A DNA stretch of 64,000 nucleotides, taken from positions 1 to 64,000 of the forward strand of contig NVVN01000004.1 of the NCBI GenBank assembly GCA_002733355.1, given 5' to 3'. Made by a program: the position numbers. The stretch is from Sulfurovum sp. (GTDB lineage Bacteria; Campylobacterota; Campylobacteria; Campylobacterales; Sulfurovaceae). The first letter of the stretch is position 1. Every line of letters starts with the position of its first letter. Shown here piece by piece: positions 3,301 to 9,300 of this stretch.

Positions 3301-6300
3301 GATAGAGATAAAGATGGAGTGCCTTGTGAGAATATTTGTAGTGGTGGGTAAAAGTAGCTTGTACCCATTATTTACGTGATGCCTACCACATCACAGGGGG
3401 ACGCAGTTAACTTAGCTGAGCAAAAATGTTTAGACATCTCTGAACTTAGCTTGGCTGACTTGCAGAGTATAGATGAGCGTATAGGTGAGGGTGTGGTCGC
3501 ATTGCTTGATAACCGTGCTTCGATGAATGCAAGGGTGTCTGAGGGTGGTACGGCTACTGTTAGGACTTTGGAGCAGGTGGAGAGTTTGAAGGTTTGGCTA
3601 AGCAAACAAAACTAGCTATAATAAATGAAAAAAGGAGCATAGGTGTATTTGAGTCTTAAAGATAAACAATTAATCGTTACTACTTTAAAACAAGAGATAC
3701 CTATGCTTCAAGCACTTTACCTTTTTGGTAGTCAGAAAGATGGGAGCGCAACTGTTTCTAGTGATATTGACATTGCTTACCTTGCGACAAAGCCTTTAGC
3801 CAATGTAGAGCGTTGGGAGCTTTCTCAACAGTTGGCTTCTTTACTTTCGTGTGATATTGACCTTATAGAACTAACTCAAACCAATACTATTTTTAGATAT
3901 GAGATACTCTCGACAGCAGAACGTATATATGGAGAGGGCTATGAGGTAGAAAGTTTTGAGACTTTAGCATATAGTTTTTACCTACGTTTTAAAGAGGAAC
4001 GTAAGCCTATAGTGGATGCTATTATGAAAAACAAATCTGTTTTTGGGAAAATACATGCCTGATGTGGTGTTAAATAAAATTCAGACTATTGAGAGATGTC
4101 TGAATCGTATACGAGAAGAGTACATAGGGTATGAAGAAAGTTTCGAAGAGAACTTTACAAAGCAAGATTCTGTCATACTGAACTTAGAACGTGCGTCACA
4201 AGCGACGATAGACATCGCAACACATATAGTAAAAACTAGAAGTCTAGGACTACCCAATACTAGCCGTGAACTTTTTGATTTTCTTTTAGATGCTAACATT
4301 ATAAGTAGTGAGACTTGTAAGCAGATGCAAGGGATGGTAGGTTTTAGAAATATAGCTGTGCATGATTATCAGAATTTGAATATTGAGATTGTTGTGGCAA
4401 TTGTGGAGAAACACCTTGGAGATTTTGAAAGGTTTATTCAAGAGATTTTTAGTGGGTATTTGGATGAAAAGTAGCCTGTCCTCTTTTATTTCTTTTTTAT
4501 TGTTGGAGCAGATGGAGAGTTTGAAGGTTTGGTTGGGGAAATAATAATTGAGTAATACTTATGCCAAAAAATGAAAAAAAATTAAATGTATTTGTCGCAT
4601 CACCTTCTGATGTAATGGATGAACGTAACTTAATTAATGAAATATGTATTGAATTAAATAGAGTATGGGGTGACTGGTTAGGATTAAATCTAAATCTTAT
4701 TCGATGGGAAACTAATATNTATCCAGGAGTTTCTGAATATTCTCAAAATGTTATCAATGAGCAAATAAATGATGATTTTGACATATTTATTGCAATGTTT
4801 TGGAATAGATTTGGCACACAAACAAAAAAGTCCAAATCTGGCACCCTAGAAGAGTTGAATTTAGCTTTTAGTAAATTTAAAAATCAAAATGATTCCGTAG
4901 ATATAATGATTTATTTTAAAAAACAACTTTTAGAATATGAAGATAAAGTACAGCAAGAAAAAGTATTGGATTTAAAACATAATCTTTCAAAAGAAGGTAC
5001 TCTATATTGGGAGTTTCAAGAGACAAAAGATTTTGAATCATTAATGAGAATACATTTGAGTATGGTGGCTCAAAAATGGGCAAAAAAATATTTATCTGAT
5101 AATACAAACAAATCATATAAAGATATTTTACTAGATGATTTAAATTTAGAAGACTATTATAGTATTGTCTCATCACGTACAAAAGTTTTGCAAACACTTA
5201 CTTTGAATATAGCAACGATATATAAATTTAATATTGATGGAGCTAAATTATTTAGTAAACAAATAAAAAAACTTCTTAATGAAAAGAATATACTTATAAA
5301 ACAATTTAAGCTTTTACGAGTTACAAAGATATATTTAATGAATATGGAGGATACAGTAAATATTATCGATTCTCAAATTGCACCTATTTCTCATGCAAGG
5401 GGTGTATTGTTTGAGACACTAAGTAAAATTATATCTTTGGAAATAGGTTTGAAATTTAACGAAAGAATTACTACGCTTAAAAGCGTTATCAATAATTTAA
5501 ATAATGTACATATAGATGCAAGTAATAAAATGAAAGACACCATAAATAGTTTGAGTAATAATTCATATTTAAAAAATAATCTAACTAATCAAAAGATGAT
5601 TAGAGTTTTAGAAAAATATAAAAGCGAACTTGATAAATTTATAAATCTTTCAACTCCTTTATTGGAATTACTTAATGAATTGGAAAGCTGATGTATTTTA
5701 GATTGTTCCAAGGTTATAAAATGTGGGAATGCATACGTCAATTTAAACTTTAAATATAATTTCAATTTTTTTCAATATTCAATATTAAAGGTGCGTTGGC
5801 AAACGCACCCTACGGGGTTGGTATTTTTTTCAATTTGTTTTTTTGAATAAGCTTGTAGGGTGCTGTTTGCTAGCGCACCTTTAACTCACAACTACCGATA
5901 GATCTGAACACAAAATAAAAATGACAATGTGCCATATTTTCACTTCTCATTTAAATTCTACGCTACACTTCAAAATGGCAAAATACAAAAGACTCTTTTT
6001 GGCTGAACACAGCTATTACATTACTGTGGCTACACACAAACGACAGCCACTACTTGTAGATAACATTGAACTACTCCGAGAAAGCTTTCGTGAAAGTAAA
6101 CGGTATTTTACTTATAGCATAGATGCCATTGTAGTCATGCCTGACCATATACATATGATAATTACCCCTAAAGATGTGATGGATTACCCTAAAATCATTA
6201 GAGCTATAAAATATAACTTCTCACGACATTTTCATCTAGAAGAAGAACAATCATACAGTAGGTATAAACGAAAAATAAAACCTATTTGGCAGAAGCGATA

Positions 6301-9300
6301 CTATGAGCATACGATACGTAATGAGAACGATTATGTACGATGTTTGGAATATATGCAAAATAATCTGCTAAAACATGGCTATGTAGATAATGGCGAAGTA
6401 TGGGAATACATGTCTCTGTAGGGTGCGGTTGCCACAGCACCTTTAAATTCAATATGCAATAGAATCTTTTTTTCATCCAAATATTAAGGTGCGGTGGCAA
6501 CCGCACCCTACGAGATATTACGTTAAGCAACAGTGATATTAAAGACTTCATAAGTATTTATTGATATAGTAATATTATTAGAAAAAATGATGAGAGAGGT
6601 ATGTAGTATGGCAGGTGGAGAAAATAGACGTATAATGGAAATGCAATTTGAGGCNATGAAAGATGAGCATGGAGTTAAAAAAGATGATGATGCTCCTAAA
6701 AAACCTAAACCGAGTAACCATAGAAGTGAAAACAGTCGAAAAATCGCAGCATTGTATGAAGATGCAGCTGAGTATGAAGAAGAGCTAGAGGCTTTTGAAA
6801 AAGAGCTTGAAATCATTAATGAAAATCAACTCTCAGATNNTTTGGATGCCTTGGTTAAAAGTACGCCAGAGTATGATGGCGATTATGCTGTGGAATTAAG
6901 GGCTGTACTAGAAGCTGGTTGGACACAGAAGGTTGATGTAGATAAAACCCATCCCAAAGAAGAGTTAGAACTTATTAAAAAATCAGCATTTAATGATGTA
7001 ATTGAAAAGCTTAATGAAGAAGATGTCAGAGATACCTTGGTGAAAAGATGGGAAATGCTTGTGGCTATAAAAAAAGAGCACGTGGCTGATGAACGTGCAG
7101 AGATGAAGCTACGTGGTATGAAGCCAGACCATATACGTAAAGTATATAGAAACTACCATGGACTTGATGACTAGGTATCTCCTACTACGAAGAGCATGAG
7201 AGAGTGAGATTTTTGTACTCTTCTGGTGTGTCACCTGCAAAATGTTCGAACTCTGGAAGTTCGTCAAAAGGGTGTGTGGCTATGTGTAGTAAGGTTTCTA
7301 CCATCGTAAAGTTTCCTTGTCTTGCAAGGAAGGTTGCTTTTTCAAGCATATAGTTTTTTAAAACATACTTTGGGTTGATCTTTAGAAGAGCATCTTGACG
7401 CTGGGTTTGGGTACGCGTTTCCTTTGATAAGCGAGCATCATACAGATTGAGCCATTTGTCTATGGGTACTGGATTCATGGCAAGTTCAAGGAGAGGCATT
7501 CTTTCACCGTCATAACGACTTAGTGTTCGAAAGAAAAGCGTATAGTCCACATAAGCGTCTTGTAGTGTACCTACTAGATTTGAGATAAGTGTCATGTCTT
7601 CATTTAGCTCCAAAGTCAATCCAAGTTTTTGACGCATGACATCTATGTATGCATTAGGATAAATGAAATCTCCATAATCATCAAGTTTTTTTTGCATTTT
7701 CTCTTCGTCGATAAGAGGAGAAAGTGCCTTAGAAAGCATAGTAAGGTTCCAGTAGGAAATGTTGGGCTGTTCACCATAGGCGTATCGTCCAGCTTTATCT
7801 GTTGCATTACATACAAAGCCGTAATCAAAATCATCCAACATAGAAAAAGGACCATAATCTATGGTGAGACCTGCTATAGACATATTGTCAGTATTCATCA
7901 CTCCGTGGCAAAACCCTAGACCTTGCCACTTGGAAATAAGCTGTGCTGTGCGTTCANTANCNNCNNNNAAAANCNCANNNNNNCGNNTCNTCNCNATNNN
8001 GNANNTNNNGGNAANNNCTCANNNANNNNNTANTCGNCAANTGACTTTAGTTTATCAAACTCTTTAAGGTAATAAAAGTATTCGAATGTACCAAAACGCA
8101 CCCATGAGGGTGACATACGCATGACGATTGCTCCACGTTCTATGTTGTTTCGTAATAGTTTTGTTTGTGAACCTATGATGCCAAGAGCACGTGTGCTAGG
8201 AACGCCCAGATGGTGCATGGCTTCGCTCATGAGATACTCTCTTATGGAAGAGGGTAGCGCGGCACGACCATCTGCAGTACGTGAATAAAGTGTTTCACCA
8301 CTCCCTTTAGTCTGTAAGTGCCAGCTATTAATACTTCCTAGATTGTGTGCTCTACCATCTCCTAGACGTGGGGCGTAATGGCTGAACTGATGTCCAGCAT
8401 AGCACATAGAAAAAGGACGCACCCCTTTAGGTAAAAAGGTGCCGTTAAGCAGGTCTATAAAACGAGGGTCATCTCCGCTGTTGTCATCAAGGTCGATGAG
8501 TTTTGCTGTCTTGGGGTTAAAGCTTATCAGGTATGGCTCATCAAGAGGTTCAGGCTCTGTCATATCATAAAATTCGCTATCTAGCGAAAGATATTTGCTT
8601 TGAAATTGTAGGTTATCAAGTGTCATAGAGATGTTTTACATGTTTTATGCTTAAGTTCAGATAATCATTGACTTCTTCAATGTTTTTTTCTTTAGCAATT
8701 TTTCGTATATATTCTCACCCAAGAGGGTAAACTAAAAGACTCATCTTTATTTTGAAAATGTACCTCATTACGTTATAGTACTAAAATTTCTTCCAAACTC
8801 CTATACCCACTTATGTAGACCATTTGTCCATCTTCATTTACTTTGACTATTGAAGGAAATGCGTTGACTCCCATGGATCGGGCTTTGGTAAAATCGTNTT
8901 GCATGAGGANTTCAGCTCGGTCACTTTGGTAAAAGTGGGTGAANGCTTNCTTNTCTTGCCTGATGTANNTNGTCAGNATTTCCAAGGAAGTAATGTCTAC
9001 NCCTTGGGCATAAAAGGCAGACTGGATGTCGCAGAGGTAAGTAAAGGCAGCATCTATTCCCCAGAGTTCACGTACCGTGACAATGGCTTTACAGGAAGGG
9101 TAGGTGTTGTAGTCGAAATGGGCAAGGTTTAGAAGTCTTAGATTAAACGGTTGGCTGGTAGCCTGCTGAACGGCATTCCAGTTTTGTTTGAGGTAGGCTT
9201 TGCTTTCATCATTCCACGGCATTTGTCCTGAAGTACGCAGACCACCTACTACCAAGCCAAATGTATAATGTTCACTATAGTTTACACGGAGCTTTTCTAT

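Follow-up and report, generated by a model that had tools for sequence, protein, structure and literature searches.

A palindromic site shared with recombination and repair genes precedes a REP-associated transposase gene in Sulfurovum

The window analyzed here is a 64,000-nt stretch of Sulfurovum sp. DNA (contig C11, positions 1-64000; contig and window coordinates are the same). Near its start lies a gene for a REP-associated tyrosine transposase (RAYT), with its coding part at 5975-6418 and its stop codon at 6419-6421 on the plus strand. The locus contains the following features:

5790-5813, minus strand: outer upstream REP, an 8-bp hairpin followed by CTAC (GTAG on the minus strand); fold -9.2 kcal/mol, z -5.07
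5855-5879, plus strand: inner upstream REP, an imperfect hairpin with its GTAG, in inverted orientation to the REP at 5790-5813; fold -3.9 kcal/mol
5917-5939, no strand assigned: 23-bp imperfect palindrome (operator) with core ATGNCA-N3-TGNCAT; score 24.6, rank 19 of 28, and footprint
5964-5969, plus strand: -10 box TACACT, starting 24 nt after the operator and ending 5 nt before the ATG
5975-6421, plus strand: RAYT gene, 148 aa; NF047646, PF01797, 4ER8 alignment and leaderless signature
6418-6441, plus strand: inner downstream REP, an imperfect hairpin; fold -5.9 kcal/mol
6488-6511, minus strand: outer downstream REP, a perfect 8-bp hairpin followed by CTAC; fold -10.0 kcal/mol, z -4.32

A preliminary description had placed an unannotated 148-residue RAYT at these coordinates, and its match to NF047646 was recovered at 139.6 bits (cut-off 80), covering profile positions 1-145 of 146. 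The protein also matches PF01797 (48.8 bits), and the IS200 model NF033573 scores 45.1, under its cut-off of 55. A phmmer comparison with Escherichia coli TnpA_REP (4ER8) gave an E value of 5.9e-16. In the resulting alignment DHIHM pairs with EHMHC and EYMQNNLLKHG with DYIYINPVKHG, such that the RAYT matches 4ER8 at the HUH histidines, the catalytic tyrosine and the asparagine and histidine metal ligands (residue roles as given in the accessible text of PMC3479197). The genome holds one full copy by tblastn. The product is a predicted Y1/HUH single-strand DNA nuclease-transposase.

The locus is a REPtron, in which this single-copy RAYT lies between two inverted pairs of cognate GTAG hairpins. 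The three REPs listed previously are all present, but that list was incomplete and lacked the fourth hairpin at 5855-5879 (+). The TAG stop codon of the RAYT sits inside the GTAG of the REP at 6418-6441. In relatives, too, most RAYT copies have REPs on both sides. The REP family here is small: a strict REP pattern finds 22 copies in the genome, on 8 contigs, versus 0 in a shuffle.

The palindrome at 5917-5939 had been assigned a score of 24.7; an independently built matrix returns nearly the same value (24.6), and 23.4 when the site's own sequence is left out of matrix training. Its reported distance of 36 nt from the gene also stands, with 35 nt between the two and the A of the ATG as the 36th base after the operator. 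Across this genome 28 palindrome sites score at least 17, all of them intergenic, and the next best reaches 13.4; each of three simulated Markov-1 genomes contained one site at or above 17 and none at or above 20. Genes beside the 28 sites, as assigned by NCBIfam/Pfam, include recA, radA, ruvA, recG, recQ and dinB (Pol IV), together with dprA, YifB/ComM, an integron integrase, an ExeM/NucH nuclease, three dcm genes, Mrr, RelE/ParE and a CI-type S24 peptidase regulator. As a gene set, dprA, comM, radA, recA and the nuclease are also compatible with a transformation/recombination regulon. The palindrome precedes recA in all 30 loci (genomes) examined. These data support the view that the palindrome before RAYT genuinely belongs to a family of sites spread over the genome, and predicted co-regulation of RAYT with repair genes is well supported.

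In most copies the REPtron encloses the palindrome, which stands after the upstream pair of REPs and before the gene. Such a placement would also be expected of a component of the REP/RAYT machinery, either a site bound by RAYT or the end of an element, with no role in host regulation. This origin is already contradicted by the genome-wide site distribution, with the 27 other sites preceding unrelated host genes (recA and others) and not REPtrons. The palindrome moreover lacks the GTAG tag and forms no single-strand fold (0 kcal/mol), and genomes without a RAYT match (for example G083, G038 and G101) still keep the site before the S24 gene. We give this explanation next to no credence.

The preliminary description had found the arrangement before diverged RAYTs in 7 of 24 congeners and 8 of 10 copies. 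That observation now extends to RAYT homologues in 43 of 116 genomes of the genus, with a site scoring at least 17 at 47 of the 62 assessable loci, counts that overstate independence since the copies are mutually related; loci L030 and L070, both beginning at a contig end, were left out of the 62. At 42 of these 47 loci the site lies at 35-37 nt. Considering only intact copies with upstream sequence, the site is present in 41/49 and absent from 8/49, and the gap to the ATG in 38 of the 41 is either 35 nt (24 copies) or 36 nt (14 copies). Ten of the 43 RAYT-bearing genomes have no assessable operator-linked copy. No further site at or above 17 was found in the 148,991 nt of RAYT loci. Only two elements are conserved before RAYT: the palindrome, and a -10 box recognizable as T, A and T at operator positions +47, +48 and +52. 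The flanks are random.

Because the RAYT copies all share ancestry and a single genus contains most of them, the operator could be inherited baggage, conserved by descent rather than by selection after a recent spread of the whole REPtron with its promoter; the relatedness of the copies was a caveat of the preliminary description as well. Divergence around the site argues against this explanation. Proteins of the main family are as little as 43-55% identical, yet the palindrome is retained, and a second RAYT family (27-30% identical) has it at 37 nt in two of its three copies. Information averages 1.39 bits per column across the palindrome, against 0.09 over the 60 nt upstream; the spacer averages 0.39, and the -10 box forms a second conserved block. 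Flanks this random also argue against non-coding DNA evolving too slowly for a 23-bp block to be lost at 45% protein identity. At least ten different REP hairpin types occur beside operator-bearing copies. In the RAYT tree, operator-bearing copies are found in all clades, and the operator-less copies require at least five changes. In G291, which belongs to another genus of the same family, three of seven RAYT copies score at least 17 with a gap of 36 nt, and a fourth retains the palindrome core at the same place (score 11.8). Conservation by descent alone is therefore very improbable.

The fixed distance between operator and RAYT was first described as a property of RAYT genes. The distance is real, but it is not peculiar to them: a -10 box begins exactly 24 nt past the palindrome at 23 of the 28 sites of this genome, and TAnnnT occurs at +24 from the palindrome before recA in 30/30 genomes. 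Leader lengths range from 61 to 131 nt despite this fixed spacing. In nearly all of these promoters the palindrome is located at about -59 to -37, abutting the -35 position, without ever reaching the -10 box or the start site. A weak TTnnnn -35-like stretch directly follows the palindrome in regulon promoters. The RAYT promoter of this genome is weak, with TCACTT at the -35 position and TACACT as its -10 box, and a generic sigma-70 scan misses it.

What RAYT adds to this geometry is a start codon only 5-6 nt past the -10 box. TAnnnT lies 4-8 nt before the ATG in 37/38 RAYT copies versus 128/996 long ORFs of the genome, and a Shine-Dalgarno-like motif is found in 0/38 copies versus 527/996 long ORFs; all assigned RAYT starts are ATG. 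The RAYT mRNA is probably leaderless, because the ATG follows the -10 box so closely and lacks a Shine-Dalgarno motif. Transcription would then begin at the A of the ATG, and the palindrome-to-ATG distance would therefore be held constant at 35-36 nt.

The CI-type S24 regulator among the site-bearing genes is a candidate for the protein that binds the palindrome. Its gene is core to the genus (109 of 116 genomes), and the palindrome precedes it in 30/30 loci examined. The protein combines a PF07022 CI helix-turn-helix with a PF00717 S24 domain (78.6 bits), and its GESM and FIKRI motifs supply the Ser and the Lys that pair with the catalytic residues of UmuD in an alignment. An ASAGGG stretch precedes the S24 domain, with the putative Ala-Gly cleavage bond read by eye only. 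The regulator is not a canonical LexA, since its N-terminus is PF07022 in place of the LexA winged-helix domain and the TIGR00498 lexA model reaches 37 bits, far below its cut-off of 110.95, on the C-terminal part only.

With modest confidence we favor a model in which the S24 repressor acts on the palindrome and self-cleaves after damage, de-repressing RAYT along with the repair regulon from within a REPtron. The regulator, as a dimer on the palindrome, would hold promoters off. After DNA damage, RecA-ssDNA filaments would form and set off self-cleavage of the regulator, leading to expression of the whole palindrome regulon, RAYT included. Production of RAYT would thus coincide with an abundance of single-stranded DNA, the only form in which REP hairpins are a substrate. 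In this model we infer the binder, whether it represses or activates, the signal that induces the regulon, leaderless initiation and any effect on REP movement.

The single invariant place of the palindrome, abutting -35 in nearly all promoters, counts against repression. Operators of the LexA type tend to differ in position between promoters, and a fixed upstream location is more often seen with activator sites. The weak RAYT promoter, the regulator's missing LexA winged-helix domain, the operator-less RAYT copies and the E. coli gene without a LexA box also weigh against the favored model. The palindrome may instead be an activator site that switches on a recombination/transformation regulon. 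Its binder would be either another protein or the S24 protein in a positive role comparable to that of lambda CI at PRM. In that case RAYT induction would accompany that of DNA uptake and recombination genes, with no de-repression by damage. The exact 24-nt spacing maintained over leaders of such different length would fit this alternative, as would the lack of overlap with the -10 box or start site, the weak -35 position of the RAYT promoter and the presence of dprA, YifB/ComM, radA, recA and the ExeM/NucH nuclease in the regulon. Mycobacterial PafBC, a damage activator, likewise uses a motif at rigid spacing from the -10 box. Against it, an S24 regulator with intact Ser/Lys directly behind the site in 30/30 genomes is the classic layout of an autoregulated repressor, and dinB, ruvA, recG, recQ and the integron integrase typically belong to SOS regulons. 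Among the genes flanking the 28 sites none was recognized as a candidate activator, and if the intact S24 protein activated, damage would turn the repair genes off. On balance we consider activation unlikely.

The repressor model can be compared with several known systems. The E. coli TnpA_REP/RayT REPtron (4ER8; Messing et al. 2012, PMC3479197, in its accessible text; Ton-Hoang and colleagues, PMC8266576) belongs to the same NF047646 family. The Sulfurovum RAYT keeps its HUH motif, catalytic tyrosine and Asn/His metal ligands, and in both cases a single-copy gene lies between inverted REPs with a 5' GTAG tetranucleotide. A LexA-box-like site is absent upstream of E. coli rayT, and the predicted link between RAYT and a regulon is therefore lineage-specific. 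Unlike E. coli rayT, for which no dedicated regulation is described, the Sulfurovum gene is served by a dedicated promoter with a regulon operator, and its mRNA is probably leaderless. The association of GTAG REPs with RAYT genes in Sulfurovum (NBC37-1) has already been published (Charnavets et al. 2015, PMC4690160; Di Nocera et al. 2013, PMC3733652), and the 26-nt REP given for Sulfurovum sp. NBC37-1 in the available text is identical to the REPs flanking copies L054 and L069. The accessible parts of these two papers, which concern REP structure and distribution, describe no shared operator, promoter or SOS link; in PMC3733652 the driver of RAYT expression is stated to be unknown and read-through transcripts are suggested. 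A literature search found no paper connecting RAYTs with SOS control.

LexA control of integron integrases was reportedly described by Guerin et al. in 2009. The Sulfurovum arrangement may be analogous, in that a recombinase for folded single-stranded DNA sites would be placed under a damage regulon, and the integron integrase locus of this genome carries the palindrome too. Unlike the integron integrases, which are tyrosine recombinases behind a canonical LexA box, RAYT is a predicted Y1/HUH enzyme associated with a CI-type S24 regulator and a different palindrome. Transposition of ISDra2, an IS200/IS605 Y1 element, rises after irradiation in Deinococcus. RAYT would resemble its related Y1 enzyme in depending on single-stranded DNA from replication and repair. 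In ISDra2, however, the link is substrate availability, whereas in Sulfurovum it appears to be written into the promoter of the transposase gene, and RAYTs, unlike ISDra2, do not self-mobilize. The obligatory single-stranded DNA intermediates of this IS200/IS605 member are described in the accessible text of PMC6006769. The S24 regulator shares PF07022 plus PF00717, a predicted Ser/Lys dyad and a site before its own gene with the lambda CI/HdiR-type regulators of non-canonical SOS responses. It differs from them in being a chromosomal core gene with about 28 targets and in having its operator at an invariant position abutting the -35 region.

RAYTs, which are single-copy relatives of IS200 transposases, are widespread and vertically inherited. 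Two RAYT families and at least ten REP types have here one repair-regulon site at one place amid randomized surroundings, and this comparative evidence suggests that selection acts on when RAYT is expressed and that this timing is linked to the recombination/repair programme. We propose tentatively that RAYT and its REP hairpins may serve a function in the DNA-damage/recombination response of Sulfurovum and relatives and be more than tolerated passengers. The nuclease would be expressed only together with recA, radA, ruvA, recG and recQ, and would act on REP hairpins extruded in single-stranded gaps. A bolder variant of this view would take the invariant place of the palindrome beside -35 as the mark of a new positive control by a CI-type S24 protein. 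To our knowledge Campylobacter and Helicobacter, the best-known members of the group, are without LexA; the sites described here would point to a previously undescribed SOS-like regulon with a CI-type regulator and an unusually rigid promoter architecture. If the link to RAYT is true, it would supply a first physiological signal for the activity of a domesticated RAYT and a reason for the persistence of these single-copy transposases.

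The RAYT (REP-associated tyrosine transposase) gene belongs to a 1.94 Mb Sulfurovum genome (G000) assembled in 22 contigs; the window is C11:1-64000, so the contig coordinates of the preliminary description hold within it unchanged. The features of the locus are as follows.

5790-5813, minus strand: outer upstream REP, GTAG-tagged, perfect 8-bp stem, -9.2 kcal/mol
5855-5879, plus strand: inner upstream REP, GTAG-tagged, imperfect fold
5917-5939: 23-bp palindrome (operator)
5964-5969: predicted -10 box of the RAYT gene, TACACT
5975-6421, plus strand: RAYT ORF, 148 aa
6418-6441, plus strand: inner downstream REP, GTAG-tagged, imperfect fold
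6488-6511, minus strand: outer downstream REP, GTAG-tagged, perfect 8-bp stem, -10.0 kcal/mol

Identification of the 5975-6421 ORF as a RAYT was confirmed by the NCBIfam equivalog NF047646 (139.6 bits, cut-off 80, profile positions 1-145 of 146). The ORF also matches Pfam Y1_Tnp at 48.8 bits, and its top match among solved structures is E. coli TnpA_REP (4ER8, E 5.9e-16). The HUH histidines, the catalytic tyrosine, and the Asn and His metal ligands, whose roles in TnpA_REP are described in PMC3479197, are all retained in the alignment with 4ER8. A 166-aa ORF beginning at the ATG at 5921 was rejected as an artefact: this ATG belongs to the core of the palindrome, and the profile of the family begins at the 5975 ATG. 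Only one full RAYT copy was detected in G000 by tblastn; a weak partial match at C6:145358-145633 on the minus strand (28% identity over 100 aa, E 2e-9) may be a remnant or a distant Y1 transposase. No Rfam family matched between 4000 and 9000. Immediately 5' of the locus is a 376-aa ORF (4561-5691, plus strand) whose only match, to DUF4062, stays below the threshold (21.6 bits, cut-off 24.7). N runs at 7861-8626, translated as X, break the minus-strand ORFs 7185-7901 and 7916-8626; the window contains 364 N in total.

Two inverted pairs of GTAG hairpins flank the RAYT gene. The three REPs reported in the preliminary description are all present, but they had been delimited without their tags, and the fourth, at 5855-5879, had been overlooked. 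None of 200 shuffles folded as well as the outer stems, and a strict REP pattern gave 22 matches on 8 contigs of G000 as compared with 0 in a shuffled genome. The locus is a REPtron (a RAYT gene with its flanking REPs), with a small but real REP family and a single RAYT. Because the TAG stop codon of the RAYT gene (6418-6421 including the G of the tag) is also the TAG of the downstream GTAG, as in 29 of 63 loci examined, gene end and REP are fused. REPs adjoining RAYT genes at related loci comprise at least 10 hairpin types, one of which is identical to the NBC37-1 REP published in PMC4690160.

The site family was built from matches to 5917-5939 and then from an iterated symmetrised matrix, with a threshold of 17. 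G000 contains 28 sites at or above this score, the next best scoring 13.4; the RAYT operator scores 24.6, or 23.4 when excluded from training. Each of three Markov-1 simulated genomes contained one site at ≥17 and none at ≥20. All 28 sites are intergenic and near gene starts. Their neighbours, as assigned by NCBIfam and Pfam, include the repair and recombination genes recA, radA, ruvA, recG, recQ, DNA polymerase IV, dprA, and YifB/ComM, together with YraN, an ExeM/NucH nuclease, and a 228-aa CI-HTH/S24 protein. An integron integrase is also among them. Six of the sites (C6:227986, C6:162472, C6:190305, C3:37696, C1:42069, and C1:26372) together precede three cytosine-5 methyltransferases, an Mrr-type endonuclease, a RelE/ParE toxin, and an ORF6N protein.

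The same switch seems to be wired to restriction-modification and mobile-element genes. A distance of 148 nt separates the integron integrase (TIGR02249, 411 bits) from the regulon site at 3001-3023 of locus L014 (G000:C1:6250-12272), which has a 118-aa ORF on its other side. In other bacteria integron integrases are controlled by LexA; here, by analogy, the switch of this regulon may also govern integron recombination.

The 228-aa protein combines a phage-CI HTH (PF07022) with an S24 peptidase domain (PF00717). Its GESM Ser and FIKRI Lys align with the catalytic pair of UmuD, and an ASAGGG stretch precedes the S24 domain. A canonical LexA was ruled out, as the score with the lexA model was far under the cut-off. 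The S24 regulator is core to the genus, being encoded in 109 of its 116 genomes, and the palindrome was found upstream of it in 30/30 loci examined and at recA likewise in 30/30. The 28-site family and these two sets of loci reproduce in substance the damage-type operator family proposed earlier. The sequences most likely define an SOS-like regulon whose most likely binder is a CI-type regulator predicted to be autoregulated and self-cleaving. Translation of the S24 protein probably begins at M12 of its ORF, given a GGAG placed 5 nt upstream of this codon (minus strand, around 2940-3060 of L003, the regulator locus). L003 also contains a second, degenerate half-operator about 41 nt further upstream of the S24 gene, and a TACAAT at +24 beyond the main site that faces away from the S24 gene, towards a stretch with no ORF of 60 aa or more. 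An order-wide count of the core pattern ATGNCAWWWTGNCAT showed enrichment in genus g1 (1-19 occurrences per genome versus 0-3 for the control) and also, within its family, in g4 and g9. The excess was weak in f15/g23, and counts in the rest of the order were close to background. Counts of ATGNCAWWWTGNCAT vary across the genus although the S24 gene is near-universal.

RAYT homologues were present in 43 of the 116 genus genomes. Sixty-four loci were taken, and 62 were assessed after two that begin at a contig end (L030 and L070) were left out. A site scoring ≥17 was located within 300 nt upstream in 47 of the 62, at 35-37 nt from the start codon in 42 of these. Conservation of the operator-RAYT arrangement in diverged relatives, as first proposed, was borne out by intact main-family copies with at least 100 nt upstream: 41 of 49 have the site, 38 of them at 35 nt (n=24) or 36 nt (n=14), with single copies at 51, 87, and 104 nt. 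At least one operator-linked copy occurs in 33 of the 43 RAYT-bearing genomes. The site is absent in eight intact copies, including L045, which keeps a decayed version (score 13.9) at the expected place. Outside the RAYT upstream regions of these loci, no site was found in 148,991 nt.

In six loci (L048, L050, L053, L064, L073, and L074) a REP occupies the operator position. In three others (L057, L078, and L081) the long gap arose because a REP landed between promoter and ATG, creating a leader with GGAG. The REPs in these nine control regions give direct evidence that REPs have moved in the lineages concerned, and REP insertion is a route by which RAYTs escape from the regulon.

The link extends to a second RAYT family of 162-aa proteins, 27-30% identical to the main family (NF047646, 76.7 and 82.2 bits), in which the palindrome lies 37 nt before the ATG in two of three copies. 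These copies, L090 (genome G060), L091 (G001), and L089 (G035), have their own GTAG hairpin type, GGGGCAATCC...GGTTGCCCC. In G291, from another genus of the same family, three of seven RAYT copies score ≥17 with a 36-nt gap; in a fourth the core persists at that position (score 11.8). RAYTs of families f19 (four genomes) and f24 (one genome) have no palindrome.

When 47 distinct upstream regions were anchored on the site, information averaged 1.39 bits per column in the palindrome, 0.09 in the 60 nt upstream, and 0.39 in the spacer, where one more block is conserved, T-A-n-n-n-T at +47 to +52. In a maximum-likelihood tree of 52 proteins every clade holds operator-bearing copies, whereas the nine that lack the operator are dispersed over the tree; the starred branches require at least five operator changes. 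As judged by sequence, the conserved palindrome is a footprint and not the product of common ancestry of the whole region. The RAYT gene is a member of the regulon and is kept there by selection.

The conserved TAnnnT block is assigned as a -10 box. Of the 56 site-directions in G000, 23 have a TAnnnT beginning precisely 24 nt beyond the palindrome, as compared with about 2 at any other offset, and 23 of the 28 sites have it. At recA the -10 box is at +24 in 30/30 genomes, with an ATG distance that varies from 61 to 131 nt, and TTG usually follows the palindrome directly. Across the regulon the palindrome occupies one invariant place, at about -59 to -37, immediately next to the -35 position. 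So rigid a placement upstream is unusual among LexA-type operators and more characteristic of activator sites; the constant +24 -10 box with varying leader lengths is compatible with activator-like geometry, and the genes involved are also reminiscent of a transformation/recombination regulon. These features would suit positive control through the palindrome, which we nevertheless regard as unlikely. Under either version, repression by the S24 regulator or activation, the RAYT would be co-expressed with recombination genes.

In RAYT genes, 5-6 nt separate the -10 box from the ATG. TAnnnT lies 4-8 nt before the ATG in 37 of 38 RAYT copies versus 13% of 996 long G000 ORFs, and a Shine-Dalgarno-like motif is present in 0 of 38 versus 53%. 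Because of this close ATG and the missing motif, the RAYT mRNA is probably leaderless; recQ, dinB, and the Mrr gene of G000 have a similar layout. The distance of 36 nt noted earlier holds (24 nt up to the hexamer, the 6 nt of the hexamer, and a further 5-6 nt), but its 24-nt component is regulon-wide and the RAYT adds only the close ATG. The leaderless layout seems older than the operator link, because the f19 RAYTs (L129, L130, and L131) lack the palindrome yet share a CAATATGCTAAAAT block (TGnTAAAAT, an extended -10 box) ending 5 nt before the ATG. A generic sigma-70 and terminator scan of 5600-6700 returned 8 promoter-like matches where 5.3 were expected; none of them coincides with the RAYT promoter, and the scan detected no terminators.

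Earlier papers already describe RAYTs and REPtrons, and REPs of Sulfurovum as well (PMC3479197, PMC8266576, PMC3733652, PMC4690160). The accessible text of PMC3733652 calls the driver of RAYT expression unknown and proposes read-through transcripts, and that of a 2024 preprint (10.1101/2024.07.17.603846) describes E. coli REPIN regions as protected from exonuclease in a stress-dependent manner and does not mention RAYT regulation. Full-text literature searches, supplements aside, returned no paper linking RAYT expression to SOS/LexA and none on this palindrome or S24 regulon; in PMC4690160 the match to LexA proved to be the name of an author. Upstream of E. coli K-12 rayT no CTGT-N8-ACAG with up to one mismatch was found: the gene lies between LexA-controlled dinJ and dinB and lacks a LexA-box-like site of its own, whereas the Sulfurovum RAYT has the regulon site. 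A general RAYT-LexA link was rejected for E. coli on this ground, and the RAYT-regulon link is accordingly lineage-specific. The closest parallels in function are offered by LexA-controlled integron integrases and by the transposition of ISDra2, a related Y1 element, which irradiation stimulates.

In the mechanism that we propose, the CI-type S24 regulator would keep the regulon promoters off, and its RecA-stimulated self-cleavage would release them. The RAYT would then be made while single-stranded DNA is plentiful; its substrate, as described in PMC3479197, is single-stranded REP hairpins only. The enzyme-repeat system itself is known; what is new is a conserved regulatory link, not described before, between this system and the repair regulon.
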